This document shows positions 2,785-36,834 of a DNA stretch of 40,959 nucleotides, one piece after another. Under the pieces are notes generated by a model, which searched no databases, was not told the origin of the DNA, and was given only the letters and a program-made list of their open reading frames with translations. The first letter of the stretch is position 1. Each line of letters begins with the position of its first letter. Source of the DNA: an uncultured Methanosarcinales archaeon (GTDB lineage Archaea; Nanobdellota; Nanobdellia; Woesearchaeales; PXDW01); assembly GCA_964513865.1 (NCBI GenBank), contig CAZENX010000002.1:1-40959 (forward strand), in the 5' to 3' direction. Both the position numbers and the translations under genes were made by a program.

Positions 2785-3438
2785 TTGTTTTTCATCATTT
2801 TCTTTAGAGGCAAATTGATAAAAATAATTCCAAAAAATAAAAAATCATTCTCTGAACTTCTTGGAATAATGTTCGGAGATGGATGTCTTTCTAGATCAGG
2901 GGATAAACACTCAATTTATATAAGTGGGAATAAAGACGAATCTTCTTATATCAATTACATTAATTCTCTATTCAAGTCTATTTTTAATAAAGAGACAAAT
3001 GTGGGCTTTAGAAAAGATGAAAACACTTTGTTTATAAGATTTAGTGATAAAAATGTCTTTGATATATTTAAAAAATACTTGCCTATAGGAAAGAAATATG
3101 GAAAATTAGAAATACCTAACTTTATTCTTGATAATGAATACTATTTCTTTCAGTTTCTAAGAGGACTTTTTGATACAGATGGTTGTTTAGTTTTATCTAA
3201 ACAACACAAAAATAATCCATACTATCCAAGAATTGAAATAACAAGTAAATCAAAAAGATTTCTAAAGCAAATTCTATTATATCTAAAAAATGTTGGTTTT
3301 TATGGTTCAATCTCATCAAAAGGAGGAAAAAGTTATAGATTAGAACTGCCGGGGTTTGAGAATTTTAGTTTGTGGAGATTATTAATCAATTCAAAAAATC
3401 CAAAAAATTTGAAAAAATTTATATTGGTTAAAAAGTAG
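2785..3438 (+). CDS. Free-standing double-motif LAGLIDADG homing endonuclease
   Basis: Two LAGLIDADG-type motifs at the expected spacing: LLGIMFGDGCL and FLRGLFDTDGCL, about 100 aa apart. TTG start in the track; the exact start is uncertain. No flanking Hint/intein blocks. Confidence 0.8.
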   Translation: MFFIIFFRGKLIKIIPKNKKSFSELLGIMFGDGCLSRSGDKHSIYISGNKDESSYINYINSLFKSIFNKETNVGFRKDENTLFIRFSDKNVFDIFKKYLPIGKKYGKLEIPNFILDNEYYFFQFLRGLFDTDGCLVLSKQHKNNPYYPRIEITSKSKRFLKQILLYLKNVGFYGSISSKGGKSYRLELPGFENFSLWRLLINSKNPKNLKKFILVKK

Positions 3439-6413: not shown

Positions 6414-7490
6414 CTAGTTCTCATAAAATTCGTTTATTGAATCATCGTGGTTTATGGTATAAATGATTTTTGCAATAAGTTCTGCTACAGAAACAATTGT
6501 TAACCATGATTTATTCTCTTCAAGATATTCTTTGGAATGCTCAATAGTATCTGTGCTTATTAGTTCATCAAGATATTTATTATTATGTAAATCCCTGAAT
6601 CTTTCTGCTGTTGTTTTTTTCTTTTTAGGATCATCACTTAAAATTGGATGAGCAACAGCTGCTGATATTCTTCTTGCATTTTTCTCTTTAGTACTTACTA
6701 TGGCTTTCTCAAGGGTTCCACCAGTATCCACCATATCATCAACAATTATACAATCTTTTCCTTCAATATCTCCTGAGAATTTTATTACTTCTGTTTTGTT
6801 CGGAATACTATAAGAACGGGTTTTACTTGCAATAGCTGCTTCAACATGGAGTTTATCAGCAAAATATTCAGCTCTTTTGCCTCCTCCAGCATCAGGAGAT
6901 ACAATTACTAAATTATTAAGATCATACTTTTCTCTTATATATCCAAGTAAAATAGGGGTAGCATGAGGAGCTTCTGCTCTTGTATCCTTTGTTTGATAAA
7001 GTTCTCTTATATGTCTGTCGTGCATATCCAAAGCAATTAAATTATTAATATATAGCTTAAGAAACTCTGCAAGCATTCTTGAACTGCAGCATTCCCTTCC
7101 CTGTCTTACGTCTTGTCTACAATAAGCAAAATAAGGTGAAACAAGAATCAGGTCTTTTTTTCTAGGTAACGAGTCTCTTGCTGCGTCCAATGTATGAAAC
7201 ATTTCAATTAAATTCTCATTCACACTTCTCCCAAGAGCCTTATTCTGTGGCATGTCAACAACATAGGTTTCAAATTTTCTTATACTTTCAGGTATCCCAA
7301 CTTTTGTTTCACCATCAGCAAAATCAGTAACTTCTGTATCAATCAATTTGATTATTTGTTCAGAATCAGGCTCTCTTTCTTTTTTTATTTTCAAAAGCGC
7401 TTTATAAAGTTTTTTACCAAAATTTCTGCCTGCTCTAGTGGTAAGAAGTGCTATATCCTCAACAATATATCTATTATGATAATGAACCAA
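6414..7490 (-). CDS. Ribose-phosphate pyrophosphokinase family paralog (divergent)
   Basis: Motifs SPYFAYCRQDVRQ, SPDAGGGKRAEYFADKL and IIVDDMVDTGGT. TTG start preceded by GGGGGT (SD-like) 7 nt upstream. Sits in tandem with the previous prs gene. Confidence 0.7.
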   Translation of the reverse strand: MVHYHNRYIVEDIALLTTRAGRNFGKKLYKALLKIKKEREPDSEQIIKLIDTEVTDFADGETKVGIPESIRKFETYVVDMPQNKALGRSVNENLIEMFHTLDAARDSLPRKKDLILVSPYFAYCRQDVRQGRECCSSRMLAEFLKLYINNLIALDMHDRHIRELYQTKDTRAEAPHATPILLGYIREKYDLNNLVIVSPDAGGGKRAEYFADKLHVEAAIASKTRSYSIPNKTEVIKFSGDIEGKDCIIVDDMVDTGGTLEKAIVSTKEKNARRISAAVAHPILSDDPKKKKTTAERFRDLHNNKYLDELISTDTIEHSKEYLEENKSWLTIVSVAELIAKIIYTINHDDSINEFYEN

Positions 7491-9729: not shown

Positions 9730-9975
9730 ATGGAAATAAAAAATTTTATCTCTAAAAATACTTTGAAAATCTTAGTCAAACCTAATTCTAATAAGACGGA
9801 AATAATTAATATTGACAAAAATAATAAAATAATAAAGGTAAATGTCAAAGCTCCTGCTGATAAAAACAAAGCCAATATAGAAATAATAAAATTCTTTTCA
9901 AAATTATTAAAGAGAAAGGTAATAATCAAGAAAGGGCTTAAATCAAGAGAAAAACTGCTTGAGATTAAAGCTTAA
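9730..9975 (+). CDS. DUF167 (YggU-like) family protein
   Basis: LKILVKPNSNKTEI...VNVKAPADKNKANIEIIKFFSKLL...KKGLKSREKLLEI matches the DUF167 pattern from memory. Confidence 0.6.
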   Translation: MEIKNFISKNTLKILVKPNSNKTEIINIDKNNKIIKVNVKAPADKNKANIEIIKFFSKLLKRKVIIKKGLKSREKLLEIKA

Positions 9976-10966
9976 CTTTCCTTACCTTAATCTTGGCTTC
10001 TTTTATTATTGCTTTTGACAAAGGGTCTTCATAATCCTCATGGTAAACTATCTCTTTAATGCCAGCATTTATTAAAATTTTTATACAGGTAAAGCAGGGG
10101 AAATTTGTGCAATATATTGTAGCATTTTCAACACTAATACCAGAAGAAGCTGCTTGTGCAATTGCATTTTGCTCAGCATGAACTGCTCTTGTTATTTCCT
10201 TGCTTTGCATTGGAGGTATACCCAATTGGTCTCTTAGGCAACCTCCTCTCTCATTGCAGTGTTTCAAGCCACGAGGAGGACCATTATAGCCAGTTGTCAG
10301 AATCTTCTTGTCCTTTACAATAACAGCTCCTACATTTCTACTTAAACAAGTAGATCTTTCTCTAACTAAATAAGCTAACTTCATAAAATACTCATCCCAT
10401 GAAGGCCTTTTTATTCCGATTTCTATCTTCAGGTCTTTTATTATCCTGTTTGTCTTTTTCTTTAACTCTTCTATTGTTGAGTCATTTTTTAGAATAATAT
10501 CTGCCATCTCCTTGCATTTATTTATCTGTAATTCATAAGAAGTTTTGCTTGAGTGCTTTGCATTAAGCTTTTTTATATCCTCATCTTTTTTAGGGTCTTT
10601 TTCTCTTTCTCTGTTTTTGATTCTACTCTGTCTTATTTCCAAAGGTGCATCAACAAATATGAGGGTAAAATCACCTCTTTTTTTTAAAACATTAACCTCT
10701 CCAGGGTTTGCTATGGAACTTATAACATAGTTTTTACCAGGTATAACTTTCTGCAAAACCCTTTCTGCCAATATGCCGGAACCATATCTTTTTCTCAATT
10801 GGTTTCCCAGCTTAATTAAATTGTTTCTTGTTACTTCCTTTCCTTTTTGTTCAAGCTCTTCTCTTAAGATATCTGACAGAGAATAATGAAAGAAGTTTTT
10901 TCTTACAAAGCTGTAAGCTACAGTGTTCTTTCCAGAGCCAGGGTACCCAGATAAGCCAATTATCAT
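9965..10966 (-). CDS. Fusion protein: N-terminal P-loop nucleotide/nucleoside kinase-like domain (UPF0200/dephospho-CoA-kinase-like) and C-terminal dCMP deaminase
   Basis: Walker A is IIGLSGYPGSGKNT, right after Met at 10966. The C-terminal half has VHAEQNAI (zinc/catalytic Glu) and PCFTCIKILINAGI (CxxC). The track's extra 30 N-terminal residues look non-coding. Confidence 0.75.
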   Translation of the reverse strand: MIIGLSGYPGSGKNTVAYSFVRKNFFHYSLSDILREELEQKGKEVTRNNLIKLGNQLRKRYGSGILAERVLQKVIPGKNYVISSIANPGEVNVLKKRGDFTLIFVDAPLEIRQSRIKNREREKDPKKDEDIKKLNAKHSSKTSYELQINKCKEMADIILKNDSTIEELKKKTNRIIKDLKIEIGIKRPSWDEYFMKLAYLVRERSTCLSRNVGAVIVKDKKILTTGYNGPPRGLKHCNERGGCLRDQLGIPPMQSKEITRAVHAEQNAIAQAASSGISVENATIYCTNFPCFTCIKILINAGIKEIVYHEDYEDPLSKAIIKEAKIKVRKVKL

Positions 10967-11377
10967 TTGAAAAAGAAATACCCTGAGATTAAAAAAGGTT
11001 ATTATGATTAAAAGATTATTTTTAATTATATATTTATTAATTACATCCCGCAGCATAGGTCGTGGAAAATAAGCTCTTCTCCTATATCAGAATAAATATT
11101 AGAGCTAAATAAACCATATACTTGTGCATATTTTATGTTTTTTTTCAATCTACTATTCTTCATCTTCTTTTTTGAGATATTTTTTAAGGCTTTTGTTTTT
11201 CTTTTTCTCTTCATAATCAACCATATTCATTTCTGTTTCCTCTTTTTGGTGCTTAGAAAATTACACTCCCAGATGTTAGATATAAAGGTTATATATAAAT
11301 TAAATTAATCTGAAAACTATATTTTATAACTTATTTATTTAATGTCAGTAGAATTTATAAATGTTGTGTCTGCACAG

Positions 11378-11992: not shown

Positions 11993-13555
11993 ATGGGGTA
12001 TTCAGATGATGATAAAAAAGTACTTAATTATTTCTTTACTAACATAGACAAGGCTGTTTTTGCAACTAAAAACTTTCATCCAGAGGTATGGGCTTTAATG
12101 CAAGCTCGCTATAGCAGATCAAGAGAAGGACTTAGGCAAAGTTTCTTAAAGCTTTTAAAAGAGGACCCTGAAAATTTTCGAAAATTAAAGGAAGAAATAG
12201 AGAAGACAAAAGGAGGCATGCAGGCAAGGCACGCGACAGAAAAAGCGATTGAATTTATGGAGAAATGGGTTCTCGGCTATGGTCATAGCTCTATAGCTGA
12301 GGGAGCTGTAATAGGTTTGGGTTTAGAAGGAGTAAGCATATTAGTTACAAAGATTATTGAAGATAATAGATTATGCTCTTTTATTGAGAAATCAACAAGG
12401 TATGTTTCTTTTGATAGTAGCTCTTTTTATATTGATCCAAATTTAGAAAAATCAGAACATTATAGGGAAATAAAAGAGCTTTTGGATTTATTGTTCCAGA
12501 CATATAAAGAGTTGCATGAGCCAGTTTTAGAATATATAAAGAAGGTAGCTCCGCTTGAAAAAGACATGGCAGAGGCTGCATGGGAAAGGGCATGCGCTGC
12601 AAGAAGATTTGATGCTATCAGGTATCTTCTTCCTACTTGCACCAAAACAAGTTTTGGATGGACAGTAAATGCCAGACAACTGGCGCATGCTATTTCAAAG
12701 CTATTGTCTCATCCTTTAAAAGAGGCGAATCAAGTAGGGGAACAGATTAAGGAAGAAGCATCAAAAGTGCTGCCTTCTTTGTTGAGGTATGCTGACAAGA
12801 AGGATTATTTTGTAAAGACAAGGAAAGAGATGAGAGACATATCTAAAGAAATTGAGATAGAAGATGAAAATACCAACAGAGTTTCTTTAGTAAAAGGACC
12901 AGAAGATGCAGATGATATTGTTATAGCAGCAATCTTATACAGATTCAAGAAGCAGCCCTTTGAGAAGATAATGGAGAAAGTAAAATCAATGTCTCAGGAG
13001 GAAAAAGAAAAGATATTTGATGGTTATCTGAAAAATATGGGAGATTATGATTACCCAATGAGAGAGCTAGAGCATGCTCAATTCATTTTTGACATTATTA
13101 TAGATTATGGCGCATTCAGGGATTTGCAGAGGCACAGAATCTGCACCCAGACAAACCAGATATTAACCTCTGAATTAGGATATGATGTTTCTAAAGATAT
13201 TGTTGAAGCAGGTTGCGAAGAAAAATACAAAAAAGCCATGGATAAGGCAAAGGAGATTCATGAAAAGATTGTGGATAAATACCCTTTGCAGGCTCAATAC
13301 ATCTTACCATTGGGTTTTAGAAAAAGATACCTTATGACAATGAATTTAAGAGAGATATATCATCTTGTCAAGTTGAGAACAACTCCTCTTGCTCATGATT
13401 CTTATAGAAAGATTGCTTACAAAATATATGATGTTTTCAAGAAAAGATACCCTTTATTAGCGAAGTATATTGTCTGCAATTACTCAAAAGAAGAGCTTGG
13501 AAGATTAAAGGCTGAGGAAAAAACCGAGAAACTAGAAAAGGTAGGTCCGTTATAA
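11993..13555 (+). CDS. thyX: FAD-dependent thymidylate synthase ThyX, long tandem (pseudo-dimeric) form
   Basis: The N-half has DNRLCSFIEKSTRY (residues 124-137), which equals RHRx2Sx4SxRY apart from the first two residues. The C-half has FRDLQRHRICTQTNQ (RHR at 380-382). At 520 aa it is about twice the size of a single-domain ThyX. Confidence 0.75.
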   Translation: MGYSDDDKKVLNYFFTNIDKAVFATKNFHPEVWALMQARYSRSREGLRQSFLKLLKEDPENFRKLKEEIEKTKGGMQARHATEKAIEFMEKWVLGYGHSSIAEGAVIGLGLEGVSILVTKIIEDNRLCSFIEKSTRYVSFDSSSFYIDPNLEKSEHYREIKELLDLLFQTYKELHEPVLEYIKKVAPLEKDMAEAAWERACAARRFDAIRYLLPTCTKTSFGWTVNARQLAHAISKLLSHPLKEANQVGEQIKEEASKVLPSLLRYADKKDYFVKTRKEMRDISKEIEIEDENTNRVSLVKGPEDADDIVIAAILYRFKKQPFEKIMEKVKSMSQEEKEKIFDGYLKNMGDYDYPMRELEHAQFIFDIIIDYGAFRDLQRHRICTQTNQILTSELGYDVSKDIVEAGCEEKYKKAMDKAKEIHEKIVDKYPLQAQYILPLGFRKRYLMTMNLREIYHLVKLRTTPLAHDSYRKIAYKIYDVFKKRYPLLAKYIVCNYSKEELGRLKAEEKTEKLEKVGPL

Positions 13556-13556
13556 A

Positions 13557-14801
13557 ATGGAAGAGCTAAAATCAGATCCTGAAGTAAAAAAGATAATTCA
13601 AAATGAACTAGAGAGACAGAGGAATGAATTAAATATGATTCCATCTGAGAATTATTGCAGCAAAGCAGTTTTAGCTGCTTCTGGTTCTGTTTTGGTAAAT
13701 AAGTATTCAGAAGGCTATCCAAAGAAGAGATACTATCAGGGAAACAGGTTTATAGATGATATTGAGCAGCTTGCAATAGACAGAGCAAAGAAGCTTTTCA
13801 AAGCAGAGCATGCCAATGTTCAGCCAAATTCAGGTTCTCCCGCAAATATGGCTGTATATTTTGCTTTATTGGAAAGAGGAGATAAAGTGTTGGGAATGAA
13901 TCTAAGCCATGGCGGGCATTTGACTCATGGTTCTCCTGTAAATTTTTCAGGGAAGTATTATAATTTTGTTGCTTATGGTGTCGAGAAAGAAACAGAAGTT
14001 TTGGATATGGATAAAATCAGAAAATTAGCAGAGAAAGAAAAACCAAAGATGATTTTAAGTGGATATACAGCTTACCCAAGAACTATAGATTTCAAGGCAT
14101 TTCATGATATTGCTGCTTCTGTTAATGCTTATTCATTTGCAGATATTTCCCATATCGCAGGCTTGATTGTAGGAGATGCTCATCCCTCTCCATTGCCATT
14201 TACAGATGTTATTATGACTACAACACATAAAACTCTAAGAGGACCTCGTTCAGCAATCATTTTATGCAAGGAAAAGTTTGCTCAGCAAATTGATAGGGCT
14301 GTATTTCCCGGTTTGCAAGGGGGACCTCATGAGCATACAATAGCAGCAAAAGCAGTTACTTTTCAGGAAGCAATGAAACCAGAGTTTAGGGCATATACAA
14401 AGCAGATTGTAAAGAATGCAAAAGCTTTGGCTGAAAAGCTTATGTCAGAAAATATTAAACTGGTTTCAAATGGAACAGATACCCATCTTTTATTAATAGA
14501 TTTGATAAATACAAAGGCAATTGGAAAACCGGGAATGGGAAAAGAGATAGCAGTTGCTTTGGAGGAGGCAGGCATTGTTGTAAATGCAAATACGATTCCT
14601 TTTGACCCTTCCACTCCTTTTAACCCTTCTGGTATAAGGTTAGGCACTCCAATATTAACAACAAGAGGAATGAAAGAGCAGGAGATGGAATTAATAGGAA
14701 AATACATGGCAGATATTATCAAAAATTATAAGGATGAAGCCTTAAAGAAAAAAATAAAAGGAAAAGTCTTAGAGCTTTGCAATAATTTTATTTTCTACTA
14801 A
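13557..14801 (+). CDS. glyA: Serine hydroxymethyltransferase
   Basis: Motifs NKYSEGYPKKRYYQG and the PLP-lysine box TTTHKTLRGPR, plus VFPGLQGGPHEH. Confidence 0.9.
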   Translation: MEELKSDPEVKKIIQNELERQRNELNMIPSENYCSKAVLAASGSVLVNKYSEGYPKKRYYQGNRFIDDIEQLAIDRAKKLFKAEHANVQPNSGSPANMAVYFALLERGDKVLGMNLSHGGHLTHGSPVNFSGKYYNFVAYGVEKETEVLDMDKIRKLAEKEKPKMILSGYTAYPRTIDFKAFHDIAASVNAYSFADISHIAGLIVGDAHPSPLPFTDVIMTTTHKTLRGPRSAIILCKEKFAQQIDRAVFPGLQGGPHEHTIAAKAVTFQEAMKPEFRAYTKQIVKNAKALAEKLMSENIKLVSNGTDTHLLLIDLINTKAIGKPGMGKEIAVALEEAGIVVNANTIPFDPSTPFNPSGIRLGTPILTTRGMKEQEMELIGKYMADIIKNYKDEALKKKIKGKVLELCNNFIFY

Positions 14802-14802
14802 G

Positions 14803-16140
14803 ATGAAAATCATAAAAGCCGGATATGATAAATATCTTAACAAAGATATTAAAAAGATTATTTTTGACAAGATTCCCGACAAAAAAATCTTTTCCTCAGG
14901 AGATGTTATATTCGGAAATCCTGTTTCTAATATTGCTATTGCTTTTATTTATACATGGAAATCAGACAAAGCTCCCGAGAAGATACATGATTTGTTTGTG
15001 AAATTATCAAATTATGCCGCTGTAACAGGTTATTGGAGAACAACTAATGGAGGAAAGTATGTGTTTGCCAATATACTCTCAAATCCCAACATAAACAAAT
15101 TAGTTGTCCTGGTTTTTGAAAAGGAAGATAATGGGCATCTGTTGGTTGATGCTTTAAGGAATCTATGGGTAAAAGGTGTTGATAAAGAAGGCATTATTGT
15201 AGATAGCAAATGTCCTAATCCAAAATTTGAAGGGATTCCAAATGAAGCCCTTAATAGAGTAAGAAAACAGGCTGATCTAGTTATTTTGAAAAGGATAAAA
15301 GATTTTTCATTAGCTGAAGATTTAATAAAAGCACAGATTCAGGAGCCGGAGAATGCTTTTCATGTTGATAATTTCAAGAATTTGGAATTTTATTCAAATT
15401 TTTCTGATAAAAAATTGATGTATGATGATGGAATCAGGTTTGATAAACCTTTTATTATTGATTTTTCATCAATTGCAGAAAAGGTTAAATTTGATAAAAA
15501 AAAGTTCCAGTTATCCCAATCTATTGAGGTAGAAGATTTAGATGAAGCAGTCAGGCAGGTAGCAGCTTTTATTTATGGGCATGGTGATTTAACAGAGGAT
15601 CAGAGGGGCATAAAAACCTTTGAGTACCGCTCTTTTTCTCTAACTGTTAGGGATGCTTTATCCAAAATGCCGGAGCATTTTTCTGCTGAATATTTAAAAA
15701 AATATGTAAAAGAGTTTATGGAAGGTGTAGGGGAAAAGTTAGATGATTTTGTTTATACCTATCATGATAGAATCTTCAAAAAATGGGGGGATCAGTTTGA
15801 GAAAGCTGTTAATATTTTGAAGAAAGACCCAAATACAAGAAGAGCTTTAATTTCATTATGGGATTCTGAAAAAGATATTTTATCGGTTAATCCGCCTTGT
15901 TTAGATTTTATATGGCCCTGCATTAGAAATAATAAGCTTGAGTTTCATGTTGTTTACAGAAGCCACCATCTTGCAACAGTTGATAAAGATGGTAAATTGA
16001 TAAAAGGAGAAGGAGCATTAGTCCCTAATCTTTATGCGATTGCCATAATGCAGCAAAAGATGGCAAAAGAATTAAATATGGAAAGGGGTTACCTCTATCT
16101 GACAGATTTTAGTGGGCATTTATATATGACGGAAAAATGA
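14803..16140 (+). CDS. Fusion protein: N-terminal MtrA-like (corrinoid-binding Rossmann-type) domain and C-terminal thymidylate synthase (ThyA) fold domain
   Basis: The C-terminal part aligns by eye to E. coli ThyA: DQFEKAVNILKKDPNTRRALISLWD, NPPCLDF (Cys366 at the nucleophile position), KLEFHVVYRSHH (Arg386), LVPNLYAIAI (Asn409) and GHLY. The N-terminal part (about residues 30-180) resembles MtrA as I remember it: GNPVSNIAIAF, ANILSNPNINKLVVLV, EDNGH (His112 at the position of the Co-ligating His), GVDKEGIIV. Confidence 0.65.
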   Translation: MKIIKAGYDKYLNKDIKKIIFDKIPDKKIFSSGDVIFGNPVSNIAIAFIYTWKSDKAPEKIHDLFVKLSNYAAVTGYWRTTNGGKYVFANILSNPNINKLVVLVFEKEDNGHLLVDALRNLWVKGVDKEGIIVDSKCPNPKFEGIPNEALNRVRKQADLVILKRIKDFSLAEDLIKAQIQEPENAFHVDNFKNLEFYSNFSDKKLMYDDGIRFDKPFIIDFSSIAEKVKFDKKKFQLSQSIEVEDLDEAVRQVAAFIYGHGDLTEDQRGIKTFEYRSFSLTVRDALSKMPEHFSAEYLKKYVKEFMEGVGEKLDDFVYTYHDRIFKKWGDQFEKAVNILKKDPNTRRALISLWDSEKDILSVNPPCLDFIWPCIRNNKLEFHVVYRSHHLATVDKDGKLIKGEGALVPNLYAIAIMQQKMAKELNMERGYLYLTDFSGHLYMTEK

Positions 16141-16841
16141 AAGGGAAATTTGTAATGATTGATGGGCTTGACGGTTCTGGTAAAGGGGTAGCAGTTGATG
16201 CTCTTAAAGAATCTACATTATCAAAAGGGAAGAAGGTTATTGATTTAAGGGAATTCTGGAAAAAGCAAGAAGGGTTTCCTGATATTTCAGATTATGATGT
16301 TATTATATCTGCAGAACCTACTTTTACAAATATAGGTAAGAATATAAGGGAAAGATTAATCAGGAAAGGGACAACCCATTCTGCAAAAGAGATTGCTGAA
16401 GCTTATTCTAATGATAGACTAGAACTTTATCAAAAAATTATTTTGCCAGCTTTAGAGCAAGGAAAAATAATTATACAGGAAAGAGGAGTAGTAACTTCCT
16501 TGGTTTATCAACCATTAATGAAAAATGGTTATATATTAGAGAAGATAAAAAATCTTGAAGGTAATAAATTTTGTATGGAGCATGCACCTGATTTACTAGT
16601 AATAATTGTTGTAAAGCCAGAGGTTGTTATAGAAAGATTAAAAGAAAGAGGAAAAAAAGATAATGCGATATTTGAAAAATTAGAGTTTCAAAAAAGGATA
16701 GAGAAGATATATGAAAGCGAGTGGCTTAAGCAGGAATTTGAAGCAAGAGGCTCAAAAGTTGTTTACCTTGACACAAATCCTCCTAAAACAGTTGAAGATA
16801 CAAAGAAAAAAATAATAGAGTTATTTGAAGAATTAATTTAA
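16137..16841 (+). CDS. tmk: Thymidylate (dTMP) kinase family protein
   Basis: P-loop FVMIDGLDGSGKG, NDRLELY (DR motif) and ERGVVTSLVYQ. The start overlaps the upstream stop (ATGA). Confidence 0.75.
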   Translation: MKGKFVMIDGLDGSGKGVAVDALKESTLSKGKKVIDLREFWKKQEGFPDISDYDVIISAEPTFTNIGKNIRERLIRKGTTHSAKEIAEAYSNDRLELYQKIILPALEQGKIIIQERGVVTSLVYQPLMKNGYILEKIKNLEGNKFCMEHAPDLLVIIVVKPEVVIERLKERGKKDNAIFEKLEFQKRIEKIYESEWLKQEFEARGSKVVYLDTNPPKTVEDTKKKIIELFEELI

Positions 16842-17261
16842 TCCAGTACTTCCAAAGCCGCCTTCTCCTCTTTTTGTTTTATCTAACTCAGGAACTTCTT
16901 CTATTTCTGCTGTCTCTATCTTGTTTATTATCATTTGAGCTATCTTCATACCTTTTTCTATTTTAAAATCTTCATTACTATGGTTTATCATAATGACTCC
17001 TATTATGCCTCTGTAGCCAGCATCAATTGTTCCCGGAGTGTTTAAAACAGTGATACCATGATTTGATGCTAAACCAGATTTTGGCCTTACTTGGGCCTCA
17101 TAACCCTCAGGAACCGCAATTTTTATACCACTGGATACAATTTTTCTTTCCCCTACTTTTAGAACAACATCTTCAGCAGAATATAGGTCCATTCCTGCAT
17201 CACCGGGATGAGCATATTTCGGCAAAGGAACATCCGCAATCTTCTGAATTTTTATTTTCAT
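16833..17261 (-). CDS. dut: dUTP diphosphatase (trimeric dUTPase)
   Basis: Motifs AGMDLYS, RPKSGL, GTIDAGYRG and C-terminal RGEGGFGSTG. The likely start is MKIKIQK at 17261 rather than the track start at 17321. The 3' end overlaps tmk by 9 nt, convergently. Confidence 0.85.
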   Translation of the reverse strand: MKIKIQKIADVPLPKYAHPGDAGMDLYSAEDVVLKVGERKIVSSGIKIAVPEGYEAQVRPKSGLASNHGITVLNTPGTIDAGYRGIIGVIMINHSNEDFKIEKGMKIAQMIINKIETAEIEEVPELDKTKRGEGGFGSTGLN

Positions 17262-17461
17262 TTCAATTTTCCTCGAAAATTGTAATGTGCTTAGAAAAGC
17301 TTTGCTTTTCTTGCATACCAAAAATGCTTTTGCATTTTTTAGTGTCCCAGAAATCTCTGATTTTTAAGGACATTCATTAAAAGAAAAAGTACTCATATTT
17401 AAATAATATTGCTTTGGAGAATATAATTAGATTTAAATATAATTAAATTTTTTATTTAAAA

Positions 17462-33707: not shown

Positions 33708-34254
33708 TTAAAATCTTTTTTATTACTTCATACTTATTTTTGGCAATTTCTTTTGCTTCAGGTATTGTTAATTTTTTCCAACAGGATTTATACTTCTCAA
33801 TTAACCATTCCCTTGCTGTTGGAATATTCTCTTTTCTGAGGTTATATGCAAAAAAAGCCAAATCTAAAAAGTTTTCAAAATGAGAAAGAGCATCAGCATT
33901 TGCAACAATCTTTGCTTCTTTTGTTTTAGGTGGATAATTTTCATCAGAAGAATGAGTTAAAATACATTCTTTTACTTTTTCAATTCTGTCTTTAGGATAA
34001 CCTAGATTTTTAAGTATCTGCTCAGCTTCTTCAGAACCAAGTACATGATGATTCTCTCTTATCCCCTCTTTAATCTTTATGATATCATGTAGCCATGCAG
34101 CAATTTCTACTATTTCTTCATCAGCATTTAATTTTTTAGCTAATATCTTTGAATATTTAACTACTGTCTCAACATGGTTTTTCCAATCCCATTTTTGATT
34201 TTTACATAAATCAATTACAATTGATTTTACCTTATCAATCATTTTATTCATCAT
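33700..34254 (-). CDS. HD-domain metal-dependent phosphohydrolase
   Basis: H...HD signature (NHVETV...AAWLHDIIK). The start could be 34254, 34251 or 34242. Confidence 0.7.
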   Translation of the reverse strand: MMNKMIDKVKSIVIDLCKNQKWDWKNHVETVVKYSKILAKKLNADEEIVEIAAWLHDIIKIKEGIRENHHVLGSEEAEQILKNLGYPKDRIEKVKECILTHSSDENYPPKTKEAKIVANADALSHFENFLDLAFFAYNLRKENIPTAREWLIEKYKSCWKKLTIPEAKEIAKNKYEVIKKILNE

Positions 34255-35119
34255 CTGTTCCCTGCATAGCAAGTATATCTTCAGTTGTTAGTTTCTCGCC
34301 ACGTTTCATCTTCTCTTCTGCTTCTCTTCTCTTACCCTCTAAAGTTTTTTCTTCTGCTTCTCTTTTCTTTTCTCTGAAATGTTCTTTTATTGCTTCTACT
34401 TTTCCGCTTATTTTGTTTAGCTCTTCTAACTTTGCTTTTAACTGTTCATTTAATTTTGCAAACTCTCCTTTCTTTTCATTGAATCTTCTATAAGCTTCTT
34501 TTTCTCTTTTCTTAAAAACATCAAACTGCTTTAATGATTTAATCATTAACTCATGATTCTCCTGGCTTTTCTTAGCCTTTTCCTGTATTTGTTTATGAGT
34601 ATTGTCAGCCTCTTTCTTCATGCTATCAATACTTTCAGAAAGTTTGTTAGCCTGTCCCTGCATCTCTATTACGGATTTAGATTCTGCCAGCTGCTTTTTT
34701 AAATTATTTATTATTTTCATAATCTCCTGCTCTTTTTTAAAAGAAAGAGCTTCTGTTTCTATCTTATACTCCAATTTTTCTATATCCTGTTTTATTTTAG
34801 AAGGCTCTTTTTTAATATGGTGTTTTTTTAGAAATAAAACCTTTTCTTTATTCAGGGTTTTTATATGAGAAATCTCTTTTCTTGCCTGGTCATTAAGCTG
34901 TCTTCTTTTTTCCTTCGAGTCACGCACTTCTTGGGTTAACTTATCGCGGTTTTCTTTTGAATCTTTTATTACGTTCCTTAACTTAGAAACCTCTTTTTTA
35001 TTTTCCTGGCTTTTTTCAAACCACGATTCCTTTACATTGTTGATTTCATTTAGTCTTCTCTGTAGCTGGATGATTTCCTTTTTAAGCAAACCAAATTTTG
35101 CACTGTCTCTGTTTGACAT
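34244..35119 (-). CDS. Archaeal coiled-coil protein (K/E-rich, COG1340-like)
   Basis: A 291-aa heptad-like K/E/Q-rich sequence throughout. Co-oriented with and immediately downstream of the stalk operon. Confidence 0.55.
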   Translation of the reverse strand: MSNRDSAKFGLLKKEIIQLQRRLNEINNVKESWFEKSQENKKEVSKLRNVIKDSKENRDKLTQEVRDSKEKRRQLNDQARKEISHIKTLNKEKVLFLKKHHIKKEPSKIKQDIEKLEYKIETEALSFKKEQEIMKIINNLKKQLAESKSVIEMQGQANKLSESIDSMKKEADNTHKQIQEKAKKSQENHELMIKSLKQFDVFKKREKEAYRRFNEKKGEFAKLNEQLKAKLEELNKISGKVEAIKEHFREKKREAEEKTLEGKRREAEEKMKRGEKLTTEDILAMQGTDDE

Positions 35120-35169
35120 ATCATACCACTCTTTTTATTGGGGTTGCCAATAAAAATATAATAAAAAAT

Positions 35170-35478
35170 CTATCCGAACAAACTTCCTAAACCAGCAGCA
35201 GCCTGTTCCTCTGATTTCTTGTCTTCTTCCTTTTTCTCTTCTTTCTTCTCTTGTTTTGCTTCTCCTTCTGCTTTAGCAGCTGGTGCTGCAGCTACCTGAA
35301 CAGCTGAAGCTTTTTCTATAGCTTCATCAATATTAACGCCTTCAAGAGCAGCAACCAAAGCCTTGACTCTGGCTTCATCTACCTTGACTCCTGCAGCAGT
35401 CAGCACCTTTTTAACAGATGCCTCATCTACTTTCTGCCCGGCTTTGTGCAAAAGCATTGCAGCATATACATATTCCAT
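35170..35478 (-). CDS. rpl12: Ribosomal stalk protein P1 (aL12)
   Basis: [12 protein letters not shown]-terminus, an Ala-rich hinge, an acidic tail and the conserved terminal GLGSLFG. Confidence 0.9.
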
Positions 35479-35523
35479 TTTTCTTTCCTCCTTATAGTTG
35501 TTGAATAATGAATATAAATCTTG

Positions 35524-36834
35524 TTATTTTTTCTTTTGTATTCTTTCCTGAATCTTTTTCAGATTCTCTTCAGCTTTTTTCATGTCTTCCTCTGTCACTT
35601 CTTGTTTGGATTCAACTTTCTCTTCTTTAATATCTTCTAATTTTTCTTCTACCTTCTTTTCCTCTGCTTCTTTCTCTTCGGTTTTTTCAGGTTCTTCTGT
35701 AATCTCTTCTTTTGCCTCTTCACTTTCTTTAGTTTCCTTTTTTGGTTGTTCCTGTTCTTCTGTTTCTTCTTCCTTCTCTTTTTTTTGTTCTATTTTAGTT
35801 TCTTTCTCTTTTTCCTCCTTTGTTTCTTTTTTTGTAGTTTCTTCTTTCTTTTCAGGTTCTTTTATTTCTTCAACTTTTTCTTCTTCAATTTTTTCCTCTT
35901 TTGTTTCTTTAGGTTTCTCTTCTGTTTTGCTAGTTGCTTCTTTCACCTCTTCTTGTTTTTCTTTGACTTCTTCCATTTTCTTTTCCTCTTGTTTTTCAGG
36001 AATATTAAGTTTATTAGCTAAATCTTTCATTTGTGCCTCAGCTTTTGAAATCAGATTCTTTGTGGTTAAATCAGTAATTAAATCTTTGCTTATTGCTAAA
36101 TTTTTAGAATCATTAAATGCCTTTGATAATAAAAACTGAATATTGTCTTTGGTTATATATCCTGCCTCTAAAGCTAAATTAAAAACAGCTCTTGCAGCAT
36201 TTTGAATGTCTGCCAGATACTTTGATTCATCTATTGCCAAAACATCTTTTTTGAAGATATCTCCATTTTCATATACAGCTATTATATTTAAACCAATCTC
36301 CATTGGTTCTATACCTAATCTTGTCAAAACCTTTGCTTTATCCTCTGTTATAACTTCCCCTTCTTTTGCCACCAAAGAATCCTCTTTTATAGCCACTTTC
36401 CCGTTTTCTATACCAGCTTTAATTCCTGCCTGTCCTAACTCTCCTATAATTGGTCCAGGTGCAAATCCTGTCGGACCTGCTGGAACTACGATATCCTTAG
36501 GAGCTTTCTGTCCTGGTTTTGCAGCTGCCTTGGATTTGCTTTTTTCCAAAAGCTTATATAATTTGAAAGGGTTCTCTTTTGAGAATATCAAAGCAGGCAT
36601 TCCTTCTAAATAAGGTTCAATCTCTTTTATCTTCTCTTTTGAGGATTTTTCTATTGCTAATTTTAATAACCTTCTCTTTGTCATTTTTATGACTATTGTA
36701 TCCCTTAAAGAAGACACCATCTGCTGTAATTGTTTTGCTGGCAGATTTTCCATATTTACAGCTGCTATAATCGGATAAGTATCTATTAATTTACTAAAAT
36801 CTTCTACAGTTTTTTTCTTTTGTTCTGATGTCAT
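35524..36834 (-). CDS. rplP0: Ribosomal stalk protein P0 (uL10) with a long K/E-rich C-terminal extension
   Basis: The uL10 core has YPIIAAVNMENLPAKQLQQM, GMPALIF, PAGPTGFAPGPIIGELGQAGI and GIEPMEIGL. The last 150 aa or so are EEKK/ETKE low complexity ending KKIQERIQKKK. Confidence 0.85.
   Translation of the reverse strand: MTSEQKKKTVEDFSKLIDTYPIIAAVNMENLPAKQLQQMVSSLRDTIVIKMTKRRLLKLAIEKSSKEKIKEIEPYLEGMPALIFSKENPFKLYKLLEKSKSKAAAKPGQKAPKDIVVPAGPTGFAPGPIIGELGQAGIKAGIENGKVAIKEDSLVAKEGEVITEDKAKVLTRLGIEPMEIGLNIIAVYENGDIFKKDVLAIDESKYLADIQNAARAVFNLALEAGYITKDNIQFLLSKAFNDSKNLAISKDLITDLTTKNLISKAEAQMKDLANKLNIPEKQEEKKMEEVKEKQEEVKEATSKTEEKPKETKEEKIEEEKVEEIKEPEKKEETTKKETKEEKEKETKIEQKKEKEEETEEQEQPKKETKESEEAKEEITEEPEKTEEKEAEEKKVEEKLEDIKEEKVESKQEVTEEDMKKAEENLKKIQERIQKKK

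Follow-up and report, generated by a model that had tools for sequence, protein, structure and literature searches.

To our knowledge thymidylate is made by two routes only, those of ThyA and ThyX, both of which serve as targets for drugs and as markers in studies of genome evolution. One gene of a tiny symbiotic archaeon joins a domain resembling the corrinoid protein MtrA to a domain with the ThyA fold, and the question is what such a protein does in a cell that also encodes ThyX. We studied it in a window of 40,959 nucleotides (contig CAZENX010000002.1, assembly GCA_964513865.1). A first-pass annotation had read the gene as a possible corrinoid-linked pyrimidine methyltransferase, a reading that is partly supported here, corrinoid binding and a corrinoid methyl relay being putative.

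The reading frame runs from 14803 to 16140 on the plus strand, exactly as first annotated. All of the motifs quoted for its 445-residue product were located where they had been placed: GNPVS at 38-42, ILSNPNINKL at 91-100, GH at 111-112 and RSHH at 386-389. The full-length AF2 model is of high confidence (pLDDT 91.7, pTM 0.87), and in Foldseek it matched ThyA-fold structures at E~1e-11. The two-domain build exceeds chance by far and is conserved across the family. Its parts are as follows.

14803..16140, plus strand: complete MtrA-like/ThyA-like fusion reading frame, 445 aa plus stop (Pfam, NCBIfam, phmmer, AF2 model)
14803..14892, plus strand: residues 1-30, a clade-specific N-terminal β-hairpin extension ahead of the MtrA-homologous part, with K18 and F30 invariant (AF2 strands E2-9 and E14-20; the MtrA alignment begins at about residue 30)
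14890..15372, plus strand: residues ~30-190, a Rossmann-like domain of the MtrA fold, the corrinoid-binding type (Pfam MtrA, 5LAA, Foldseek)
15421..15441, plus strand: invariant inter-domain motif Y207-D-D-G-x-R-F213 (alignment)
15520..16137, plus strand: residues ~240-445, a short (methanogen-type) ThyA-fold domain that stops four residues past the HxY motif (TIGR03283; Foldseek matches to ThyA and 9iqu; hhalign against the canonical ThyA of locus L001)

The inter-domain motif has kin in other archaeal fusions that possess the histidine (Y/F-D-x-G-A-F/Y), and it also resembles the DPGAF at the end of soluble MtrA.

The N-terminal half is a genuine MtrA-fold domain, as had been supposed from its motifs. 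The Pfam MtrA profile (PF04208) matched residues 68-190 (E=1.8e-15, 57.4 bits against a gathering threshold of 25), and phmmer aligned residues 32-188 with PDB 5LAA (E=2.7e-14). The structural comparison with MtrA that the first-pass annotation had proposed gave the same answer: for the N-domain model (pLDDT 90.9), MtrA structures were the only significant Foldseek matches, with 5LAA at E=1.2e-10 and TMt 0.76 and the best non-MtrA match at E=0.045. The score against TIGR01111, the model for MtrA proper, was 53.5 bits, below the cutoff of 249.15, and residue 190 is followed by the ThyA domain, not by a transmembrane helix. The structure 5LAA is that of a Methanothermus fervidus MtrA homologue with cobalamin, which is contacted by D17, T53, N55, N64, H84, I111 and P112 (PMC4915002). 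Counterparts of several of these contacts lie in the following stretches of the fusion gene.

15037..15051, plus strand: R79-T80-T81-N82-G83, equivalent to MtrA K52-T53-E54-N55-L56, with T80 and N82 preserving cobalamin tail/propionamide contact positions (alignment)
15070..15072, plus strand: N90, equivalent to MtrA N64, which hydrogen-bonds to the cobalamin nucleotide tail; invariant (alignment)
15127..15138, plus strand: invariant loop D109-N110-G111-H112, in which His112 (15136-15138) pairs with His84, the cobalt ligand of MtrA (alignment)

In the phmmer alignment GH111-112 is paired with GH83-84 of 5LAA, so that the suspected ligand histidine does fall at the MtrA site, and a check of its conservation found it unchanged in all 39 members of the family alignment. 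Throughout these 39 diverse sequences (50-78% identity) D34, T80, N82, N90, DNGH109-112, N139 and P140 are all invariant, and they map onto the 5LAA contacts D17, T53, N55, N64, H84, I111 and P112. MtrA Glu54, the hydrogen-bond partner of the ligand histidine, is replaced by an invariant Thr81 in the fusion family, and the position is Ala in most other His-bearing fusions. In a set of 91 relatives with both domains, T80, N82 and P140 are found together with His112 and are lost with it (Fisher p = 8e-7, 2e-5 and 7e-6, respectively, kinship among sequences being ignored); because the sequences lacking the histidine group into only one or two large clades of CPR, this co-variation rests on few independent losses. 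It is somewhat more likely than not that the N-domain binds a corrinoid. The pLDDT of the His-loop is higher when the whole protein is modelled than when the N-domain is modelled alone, a hint that the loop may pack against the C-domain.

The assignment of residues 240-445 to the ThyA fold was likewise borne out. The methanogen-type ThyA model TIGR03283 matched residues 240-442 at E=4e-29, with a score of 101.5 bits against an equivalog cutoff of 174.55; the Pfam Thymidylat_synt match (PF00303) is marginal, at 27.2 bits against a gathering threshold of 24.3, and the fold is confirmed by the Foldseek matches. The catalytic cysteine is intact. Residue equivalences were taken from an hhalign alignment of the family with the canonical ThyA of L001.

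15838..15843, plus strand: R346-R347, invariant, aligned with the "DRR" arginine pair of canonical ThyA that binds the dUMP phosphate (alignment)
15898..15900, plus strand: Cys366 in PPC, at the position of the ThyA catalytic nucleophile, invariant throughout the superfamily (alignment with the Cys of canonical PPFCH)
15958..15969, plus strand: R386-S387-H388-H389, aligned with canonical "RSCD", an invariant His389 standing in place of the pterin-anchoring Asp (hhalign)
15970..16014, plus strand: residues 390-404, a loop with a 13-residue insertion relative to canonical ThyA and an invariant G402-E403-G404-A405 (alignment)
16027..16029, plus strand: N409, aligned with the uracil-specifying Asn of canonical "VPFN" (alignment)
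16111..16125, plus strand: S437-G-H439-L-Y441, invariant, aligned with canonical "DTHIY", whose His and Tyr bind the deoxyribose 3'-OH (alignment)

The dUMP-binding set (R346/R347, R386/S387, N409 and H439/Y441) is thus aligned and invariant, and the ThyA half very probably binds and activates dUMP. Also conserved are E304 and Y318/Y320, which we take to be the counterparts of E58 and Y94, residues of the methylene and hydride chemistry. The Asp of RSxD that anchors the pterin is D169 in the established numbering of E. coli ThyA. Its replacement in RSHH, to which the first-pass annotation had drawn attention, is invariant in the family, peculiar to this clade and coupled with the 13-residue insertion at the cofactor pocket; the insertion is found only in this clade and in P0128 and P0132. 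Ranked by target coverage, the top structural match in Foldseek was the flavin-dependent dCMP hydroxylase 9iqc/9iqu (TMt 0.74), and its use of flavin indicates that a ThyA fold can take a non-folate cofactor. An analogy with DHFR-TS was rejected: Foldseek matched DHFR-TS structures through the TS half only (rmsd >20 Å), and the N-domain alone matched MtrA only.

The genes around the fusion belong to deoxythymidylate metabolism.

9965..11056, minus strand: P-loop kinase fused to dCMP deaminase, a supplier of dUMP (profile matches, neighbour clustering)
11993..13555, plus strand: thyX, a 520-aa flavin-dependent thymidylate synthase, with a 1-nt spacer to glyA (Pfam Thy1 5e-54; TIGR02170 99.7 against a cutoff of 87.9)
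13557..14801, plus strand: glyA, serine hydroxymethyltransferase, with a 1-nt spacer to the fusion gene (Pfam SHMT 1e-153; NF000586 597 bits)
16137..16841, plus strand: tmk, dTMP kinase, whose ATG overlaps the stop codon of the fusion gene (ATGA; TIGR00041 98.5 against a cutoff of 83.25)
16833..17321, minus strand: dUTP diphosphatase, a supplier of dUMP (profile matches)

The fusion gene is part of a tight thyX-glyA-fusion-tmk operon. Among the approximately 35 annotated reading frames of the window there is no Mtr, Mcr or other methanogenesis gene, in agreement with the first-pass annotation, and the window has no glycosyltransferase or other hypermodification gene.

The two-domain fusion forms a conserved Woesearchaeota/Nanoarchaeota family of no fewer than 138 clusters (90% identity). 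When the neighbourhood proteins of 18 family loci were clustered all against all, the only recurrent neighbours were genes of the dTMP pathway and a small protein similar to PF1765. Tmk adjoins the fusion in about 10 of the 18 loci, lying within about 170 bp downstream in seven, and the kinase half of the P-loop kinase/dCMP deaminase is a conserved neighbour in nine; GlyA, dUTPase and the kinase/dCMP deaminase all recur. The nearby Tmk-like kinases are of two different types, both of which are present in L013 and L016. A survey of whether the fusion is restricted to genomes with ThyX had been suggested, and no such tie emerged: ThyX is adjacent to the fusion in this window only, and canonical ThyA and DHFR adjoin it in five other genomes (L001/2, L006, L007, L009 and L010), each of which has the complete ThyA-DHFR-GlyA set beside it. 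The fusion therefore appears to supplement an ordinary thymidylate synthase instead of replacing it, and its coexistence with ThyA and DHFR or with ThyX argues for a non-redundant cofactor requirement.

The partners of known corrinoid methyltransferases were sought within 7 kb of the fusion in the 18 loci and in the window. We found no MtrH or other pterin-binding corrinoid:substrate methyltransferase, no reductive activase (RamA type, SAM/flavodoxin domain) and no B12 transporter, and the fusion protein itself has no pterin-binding methyl-donor:corrinoid methyltransferase domain (MtrH, MeTr, MetH). Woesearchaeota rarely encode cobalamin synthesis and rely on partners for cofactors (PMC8421398).

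By sequence comparison, the Woesearchaeota fusion is one branch of a large superfamily of MtrA-like/ThyA-like fusions, so far undescribed, that extends to other archaea and to CPR bacteria, and whose members are currently labelled only "thymidylate synthase" or "hypothetical". A large CPR branch has lost the ligand histidine and the cobalamin-contact residues and has kept its dTMP operons, which indicates that the MtrA-like domain can act without a His-ligated corrinoid. The locus of one CPR relative is a dCTP deaminase-fusion-Tmk operon with no second thymidylate synthase in the surrounding 8 kb, an arrangement in favour of dTMP synthesis as the superfamily function. The canonical RSxD is kept in other His-bearing archaeal fusions, so that most of the superfamily combines a corrinoid domain with a pterin pocket; one of these, P0134 (RSND), scores 210.6 against TIGR03283, above the equivalog cutoff, as does the standalone P0151 (194.9). 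In a neighbor-joining tree of the C-domains, which is rough and star-like and gives no ordering of events, fusions with the histidine branch among standalone methanogen-type ThyA sequences, and those without it gather in one or two large clades of CPR. Three deep-branching fusions with the histidine (P0210, P0128 and P0146) have surroundings reminiscent of mobile elements or viruses, in which DNA methylases, MazG and a dNMP kinase are encoded. Viral origin and hypermodification were considered and are kept only as a minor rival: scans of IMG/VR with the family alignment A1, P0210 and P0128 found nothing, GenBank phages had standalone short ThyA genes and no fusion, and the sole match in PHROGs was a Cas4-like nuclease.

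As the likeliest of the readings considered, though short of probable, we tentatively propose that the fusion is a second, corrinoid-dependent enzyme of deoxythymidylate metabolism that methylates C5 of dUMP. Its product would on balance be dTMP. That the protein-bound corrinoid is the direct methyl donor is possible but doubtful, and it is rather unlikely that the full scheme holds, namely that thymidylate synthases include a third mechanistic class, whose His-ligated methyl-Co(III) corrinoid passes its methyl group directly to C5 of dUMP, activated by Cys366, without pterin oxidation or flavin, and whose Co(I) is re-methylated from 5-methyl-H4-pterin. In such a scheme Cys366 would add to C6 of dUMP, as in all ThyA-family enzymes, making C5 nucleophilic. 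Methyl-Co(III) on the His112-ligated corrinoid would supply the methyl group, docked in a pterin pocket opened and remodelled by the change of Asp to His389 and by the 13-residue loop, with no C-terminal lid, and this step would replace methylene capture from CH2-H4-pterin and hydride transfer. The dTMP would be handed to Tmk, and the Co(I) left behind would be re-methylated by a further donor and partner, the donor possibly being 5-methyl-H4-pterin. The organism would then have a B12-dependent isozyme beside a B12-independent ThyX or ThyA/DHFR, comparable to MetH and MetE. Against the corrinoid proposal stand the change of Glu54 to Thr81, the conservation of E304 and Y318/Y320, the lack of a loading or activating partner nearby, the scarcity of B12 synthesis in Woesearchaeota, the His-less CPR relatives and the RSxD of other His-bearing fusions.

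Several of these points could also be explained by an ordinary short archaeal thymidylate synthase that depends on a methylene-pterin, which we regard as a possible, somewhat unlikely alternative. The MtrA-like domain would then be non-catalytic or accessory (a scaffold, an oligomerisation element, a binder of the C1-carrier tail or an evolutionary leftover), and RSHH and the loop would only retune the pocket for a scavenged pterin, whether folate or methanopterin-like. The CPR relatives without the histidine or contact residues, being the only visible thymidylate synthases in their operons, fit this account, as do the P0134 C-domain with its equivalog-level score, the conserved glutamate and tyrosines, the position of glyA, supplier of CH2-H4-pterin, directly upstream, the absence of corrinoid-handling partners near the 18 loci and the NCBI annotation of family members simply as "thymidylate synthase". 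It would be surprising, however, for a leftover to keep its ligand histidine and tail-binding residues invariant at such sequence divergence in a genome-reduced lineage, and the corrinoid-site residues co-vary as a unit over the superfamily. Nor does an ordinary enzyme account for the replaced pterin-ring anchor and rebuilt cofactor-site loop, and a plain duplicate synthase is hard to rationalise where a canonical ThyA-DHFR-GlyA set adjoins the fusion.

The coexistence with a normal synthase would be accounted for if the ThyA-like half made a product other than dTMP, such as 5-hydroxymethyl-dUMP or a pyrimidine nucleotide otherwise modified at C5, for use in salvage or in modifying DNA, with the corrinoid domain aiding unusual C1 or redox chemistry. 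A conventional synthase accompanies the fusion wherever this is visible, viral ThyA-fold paralogues are hydroxymethylases or hydroxylases, the dCMP hydroxylase 9iqu, T4-type gp42 and MilA are among the best structural matches, the deep-branching members lie in regions resembling mobile elements or viruses, and there are two types of Tmk-like kinase near the fusion. We nevertheless consider this improbable: N409 is the Asn of dUMP/thymidylate-type enzymes and not the Asp of cytosine-specific ones, the overlapping downstream kinase passes the dTMP kinase equivalog cutoff, a CPR relative fills the synthase slot of a dTMP operon, and both the viral sequences searched and the window's gene content are negative for this idea. 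Still less likely, and in our view very improbable, is a corrinoid domain that acts as a sensor, B12 binding or its redox or light state switching a conventional synthase and so tying dTMP to a host-derived vitamin signal. Such a role would reconcile conserved corrinoid-binding residues with the absence of methyl-loading and activation machinery nearby, in organisms dependent on partners for cofactors; it leaves the remodelled pterin pocket unexplained, and we know of no MtrA-fold domain that serves as a sensor, nor did the literature searched yield one.

In the portions of the literature covered by our searches (MtrA with thymidylate synthase, DUF4346, DPANN ThyA/ThyX and flavin dCMP hydroxylase), no MtrA-like/ThyA-like architecture was described and, as the first-pass annotation had it, none of the characterised thymidylate synthases encountered has a corrinoid domain. 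If the corrinoid-dependent methylation of dUMP is correct, a B12-linked thymidylate route would be added to ThyA and ThyX, and the fusion would provide the first case of an MtrA-type corrinoid domain employed elsewhere than in energy metabolism, as well as the first of a nucleotide carbon methylated with the help of cobalamin. Cofactor-scavenging DPANN cells could then use methyl-folate or methyl-methanopterin from hosts such as methanogens, and could escape the "methyl trap" although they had neither MetH nor DHFR. Should the corrinoid prove to be only accessory, there is still a large unrecognised fusion superfamily common to the two great groups of ultra-small symbionts, the DPANN archaea and CPR bacteria, and the cofactor of the archaeal short ThyA, an acknowledged gap in the literature, gains a soluble, single-polypeptide candidate for experiment.

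Among known systems, the N-domain is closest to MtrA, the corrinoid subunit of methyl-H4MPT:CoM methyltransferase, and its cytoplasmic homologues (PF04208; 5LAA, 5L8X, 8Q3V), with which it shares the fold, 31% identity and the NPNI motif; MtrA H84, D17, T53, N55, N64 and P112 correspond to H112, D34, T80, N82, N90 and P140. Unlike MtrA, the fusion has no transmembrane helix and no Mtr partners, has Thr for Glu54 and an extra N-terminal β-hairpin, and is covalently joined to a nucleotide-modifying domain in a non-methanogenic DPANN archaeon. The C-domain shares with the methanogen-type thymidylate synthases (TIGR03283, ~200-240 aa) the short build that ends after HxY without the canonical C-terminal lid, and the catalytic Cys, RR pair, RS, Asn and HxY; it differs from them in RSHH for RSxD, in the cofactor-loop insertion and in the attached MtrA-like domain. 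The cofactor and biochemistry of the standalone methanogen-type ThyA are themselves poorly characterised (PMC9012536, PMC9931769). Canonical ThyA and protozoan DHFR-TS have the same catalytic fold and nucleotide-binding residues, and DHFR-TS also places an α/β domain N-terminal to a C-terminal TS. The fusion N-domain is not a DHFR, however, having no DHFR match in Pfam or NCBIfam, and a separate DHFR gene is present in five related genomes.

The likeness proposed to MetH and to MtaABC- and MtrAH-type systems is that of a His-ligated corrinoid shuttling a methyl group to an activated nucleophile. In contrast to those systems, neither the fusion protein nor its neighbourhood includes a pterin-binding TIM-barrel or an activation domain, and a nucleotide carbon nucleophile as acceptor would be without precedent in the cobalamin-dependent methyltransferase class. 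The phage enzyme AfhB (9iqu/9iqc) is a short ThyA fold with a non-folate cofactor, as is proposed for the fusion, although it uses free flavin, acts on dCMP, lacks a corrinoid domain and is only 21% identical. The CPR (Patescibacteria) proteins have a homologous core, the same domain order and the same dTMP-operon setting with dCTP deaminase and Tmk. Unlike the archaeal fusion, they are without the histidine and cobalamin contacts, retain RSxD and carry an extra C-terminal DUF4346 (PF14251), a domain with which the TIGR00284 DHPS-like proteins likewise end.

The fusion gene (14803-16140, plus strand) is an intact open reading frame of 445 residues, and every motif quoted in the first-pass annotation was found where that annotation had placed it. 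The N-terminal half matches Pfam MtrA with 57.4 bits (cutoff 25; E=1.8e-15), and residues 32-188 align to 5LAA, the cobalamin-bound MtrA homologue of Methanothermus fervidus (E=2.7e-14), with GH111-112 over GH83-84. In Foldseek, an AF2 model of residues 1-215 (pLDDT 90.9) matched nothing but MtrA structures significantly: 5LAA came first (E=1.2e-10, target-normalised TM score 0.76), followed by 5L8X and 9QTS/9QTR, and the next match was at E=0.045. The proposed N-terminal resemblance to MtrA is thus borne out by profile, alignment and structure comparison. In the full-length model (pLDDT 91.7, pTM 0.87) the pLDDT of the His loop rises to 95, from 77-87 in the N-domain model; this predicted change is a hint, and our sole clue, to the inter-domain geometry.

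In 5LAA, His84 ligates cobalt and is hydrogen-bonded by Glu54, the propionamides are bound by Asn55 and residue 82, the nucleotide tail is bound by D17, K52, T53, G57 and N64, and I111 and P112 lie within a conserved GAIPY/F-xEN segment (Wagner et al. 2016, PMC4915002). We mapped contacts to the fusion by sequence alignment with 5LAA and took their status from a family alignment of 39 members with 50-78% identity to the window protein.

MtrA contacts, their fusion equivalents and family status
D17: D34, invariant
K52: R/K79, conserved basic
T53: T80, invariant
E54: T81, changed, invariant Thr
N55: N82, invariant
N64: N90, invariant
H84: H112, invariant
I111: N139, invariant Asn
P112: P140, invariant
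E115: E143, nearly invariant (at least 90%)

His112, suggested earlier as the cobalt-ligand position, does align with H84 of 5LAA and is invariant among the 39 members. By this mapping the ligand histidine and tail-pocket residues are kept, the Glu partner of the histidine excepted. In MtrA, Glu54 couples the ligand to the conformational change of sodium pumping, a coupling that a soluble enzyme would presumably not need. The fusion therefore has two domains, one of them a genuine MtrA fold in which the cobalamin ligand and pocket residues are kept; judged from these residues, its N domain probably binds a corrinoid.

By word-indexed search the family comprises at least 138 clusters (90% identity), and almost every one is a protein of about 445 residues with both Pfam domains. 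Where a taxon is given it is Woesearchaeota, Nanoarchaeota or Nanobdellota, and the annotation reads "thymidylate synthase", "MtrA" or "hypothetical". The same taxa emerged when species-representative genomes were scanned. Both halves are under strong constraint in the 39-member alignment, with invariant residues in the N domain (D34, G38, T80, T81, N82, G83, N90, N94-P95-N96, D109-N110-G111-H112, N139-P140), the linker (Y207, D208, G210, R212) and the C domain (R268, E304, Y318, Y320, R346, R347, C366, R386, S387, H389, G402-E403-G404-A405, N409, H439, Y441).

An exhaustive profile search extended the relatives to 2662 (E<1e-3), or 653 under the stricter limit of E<1e-10; two-domain proteins of 390-520 residues are numerous among them. 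Among 91 two-domain relatives aligned to the family HMMs, the 17 that keep His112 have T80 in 14, N82 in 11 and P140 in 13, against 13, 9 and 13, respectively, of the 74 that lack it (Fisher p of 8e-7, 2e-5 and 7e-6, although the proteins without it fall into one or two large clades, so that few independent events are represented). N90 and the NPN motif seem structural, being present in nearly all 91. The co-occurrence of T80, N82 and P140 with His112 suggests that the contact set is kept or lost as one unit, as would be expected of a real ligand site.

The C-terminal half is a marginal match to Pfam Thymidylat_synt (27.2, cutoff 24.3). Residues 240-442 match the methanogen-type ThyA family TIGR03283 at E=4e-29 and 101.5 bits, under the equivalog cutoff of 174.55. 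Foldseek with the full-length model matched ThyA-fold structures at E~1e-11, the best by target coverage being 9iqu, a short flavin-dependent phage dCMP hydroxylase (target-normalised TM score 0.74). Residues were mapped by profile-profile alignment with the canonical ThyA encoded beside the fusion at one locus (L001), which matches solved thymidylate synthase (TS) structures over its full length at 8e-73.

Fusion residues and the canonical ThyA motifs aligned with them
R346/R347: DRR
PPC366: PPFCH
R386-S387-H388-H389: RSCD, then a 13-residue insertion
VP-N409: VPFN
SGH439-L-Y441: DTHIY

The residues that in ThyA enzymes act as catalytic Cys, clamp the dUMP phosphate, specify uracil (the Asn) and bind the 3'-OH are all intact, and the fusion very likely activates dUMP. 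In such enzymes the pterin ring is anchored by the Asp of RSxD, and the cofactor site is lined by the loop that follows. Among 145 relatives, the combination of RSHH and the long loop is confined to the window's clade and two deep relatives (P0128, P0132); almost all the rest, fused and standalone alike, carry RS[H/N/Q]D with a spacer of 3 residues. This survey and the family alignment establish that the altered folate-binding residue is real, derived and invariant, and its clade-specific occurrence with the long loop makes the H389 change part of a larger remodelling of the cofactor pocket. All short-type proteins, the fusion included, end 1-20 residues past HxY and so have no canonical C-terminal lid. 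The ThyA fold of the fusion keeps all its nucleotide-activating residues, whereas its pterin pocket is rebuilt.

The contig is archaeal by its marker genes (archaeal helicase domain 4, NMD3, wyosine synthesis, archaeal CCA enzyme, Rpb7, S24e). Other features of the window are:

2785-3438, plus strand: LAGLIDADG homing-endonuclease-like ORF, 217 aa
5335-6345 and 6414-7490, minus strand: adjacent PRPP synthetase paralogues, 336 and 358 aa, upstream of the deoxypyrimidine cluster
9965-11056, minus strand: P-loop kinase fused to a dCMP/CMP deaminase, 363 aa; best NCBIfam match "anti-phage dCTP deaminase" at 180 bits, below the cutoff of 400
11993-13555, plus strand: ThyX, 520 aa, above the thyX equivalog cutoff (TIGR02170)

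No rRNA, tRNA or Rfam match was found across the window, and the LAGLIDADG ORF may belong to an intein or an intron or be free-standing. Positions 34001-36000 are strongly negative in GC skew (-0.34) and AT skew (-0.44) relative to the rest of the window and overlap minus-strand ORFs at 34244-35119 and 35524-36834. The window ThyX is about twice the usual length, with two to three matched stretches, as in a tandem duplication.

The genes run thyX, glyA, fusion, tmk, with gaps of 1 nt and 1 nt and then a 4-nt ATGA overlap; Tmk is above the TIGR00041 cutoff, and a dUTPase and the kinase-dCMP deaminase gene lie close by. Across 18 family loci, Tmk is a neighbour in about 10 (in 7 within ~170 bp downstream), a small P-loop kinase in 9, GlyA in 6 and dUTPase in 4. 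That kinase corresponds to the kinase half of the 9965-11056 gene, unfused and usually divergently adjacent to the fusion. Two loci (L013, L016) have two Tmk-like kinase types, one immediately downstream and the second 0.8-3.6 kb off. The fusion is not specifically tied to ThyX, a restriction the first-pass annotation had proposed to survey: five genomes have canonical ThyA and DHFR instead, directly beside the fusion in three (L001/2, L009, L010) and ~3.7 kb away in two (L006, L007). These neighbours place the fusion in the dTMP pathway, operon-coupled to dTMP kinase, yet beside a conventional TS of either type, so that it is not the organism's only TS. Its product is likely to be dTMP. As had been remarked, the contig has no other methanogenesis genes, and it has neither corrinoid genes nor methyltransferase-activation genes. 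The neighbourhoods of the 18 loci likewise yielded no methyl-loading enzyme, activase or transporter.

The wider superfamily breaks the pattern. Other His-bearing fusions, from Thermoprotei-labelled and other archaea, keep the canonical RSxD; one (P0134) scores 210.6 bits, above the methanogen-ThyA equivalog cutoff. Some occur in ordinary cellular contexts (L024), others in hypothetical-rich regions resembling mobile elements. A much larger branch, in the Patescibacteria (CPR), joins a His-less MtrA-like domain, a ThyA-like domain and DUF4346 under the NCBI name "thymidylate synthase". These and other outlying loci are:

L026, 6841-10872: Patescibacteria cluster of dCTP deaminase, His-less fusion with DUF4346, Tmk and a dCTP deaminase/dUTPase-like gene
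L021, 8001-9569; L022, 8001-9416; L023, 8001-9398: deep-branching His-bearing fusions P0210, P0128 and P0146
L019, 9983-10990: 335-aa ORF on a contig labelled Desulfobacteraceae, 60% identical to the family N domain over ~229 residues

The L026 gene order, with no second TS within 8 kb of the fusion, is good contextual evidence that the superfamily makes dTMP. DUF4346 (PF14251), the C-terminal ~85 aa of P0292, P0293 and P0303, also matches the C-terminal end of the TIGR00284 "dihydropteroate synthase-like protein", and in P0329 (302 aa) it accompanies a His-bearing MtrA-like domain alone, which hints that the MtrA-like/DUF4346 module may partner with various pterin-dependent enzymes. Around P0210, P0128 and P0146 are runs of hypothetical genes, a resolvase, an integrase, DNA methylases, a Cas4-like nuclease, MazG and a Tmk/dNK-like kinase, suggesting archaeal viruses or mobile elements; IMG/VR and GenBank phages gave no match for fusions of this type. 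The L019 ORF keeps DNGH, continues as unrelated sequence past ~229 residues and lies in a ~1.2-kb low-GC patch amid bacterial genes with 40-45% GC; it represents either a fragment of a transferred gene or a chimeric assembly.

We tentatively read the fusion as a corrinoid-dependent dUMP methylase, a reading held somewhat short of even odds because a loading or activating partner is missing, Glu54 is lost and relatives break the pattern. The CPR branch is His-less, so the MtrA-like domain can work without a His-ligated corrinoid; together with the His-bearing fusions that retain RSxD, this branch shows that a corrinoid site and a remodelled pterin site do not go together in general. This suits a conventional pterin-dependent TS with an accessory MtrA-like domain, which we consider rather unlikely given the rebuilt pocket in the window's clade. 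A different C5-modified product, to which the 9iqu match might point, is improbable beside the Tmk coupling. That the MtrA-like domain is a B12 sensor would agree with its intact ligand site, and is very improbable.

In the methylase reading, Cys366 would activate dUMP, as across ThyA-family enzymes, and the bound corrinoid would assist delivery of the one-carbon unit. Direct SN2 transfer of a methyl group, from methyl-Co(III) onto the carbanion at C5, would be the most parsimonious chemistry, needing no pterin hydride and hence no DHFR, and no flavin either. Such transfer would explain the missing pterin anchor and open pocket, although a corrinoid as the direct methyl donor is itself unlikely. 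Woesearchaeota seldom encode cobalamin synthesis and may associate with methanogens (PMC8421398), so the corrinoid would have to be scavenged.

The literature searched contained no description of the MtrA-ThyA fusion or of DUF4346, and recent reviews describe the biochemistry of archaeal ThyA as essentially unexplored (PMC9012536, PMC9931769). Each domain is of a known kind; what is new is their combination, the pocket remodelling specific to this clade and the occurrence across DPANN and CPR. A categorically new, cobamide-dependent TS class is doubtful. The proposed C5 methyl transfer would share its logic with both the SAM-dependent C5-pyrimidine methyltransferases and the MetH half-reaction, and the fusion alongside a corrinoid-independent TS would parallel the MetH/MetE pair.
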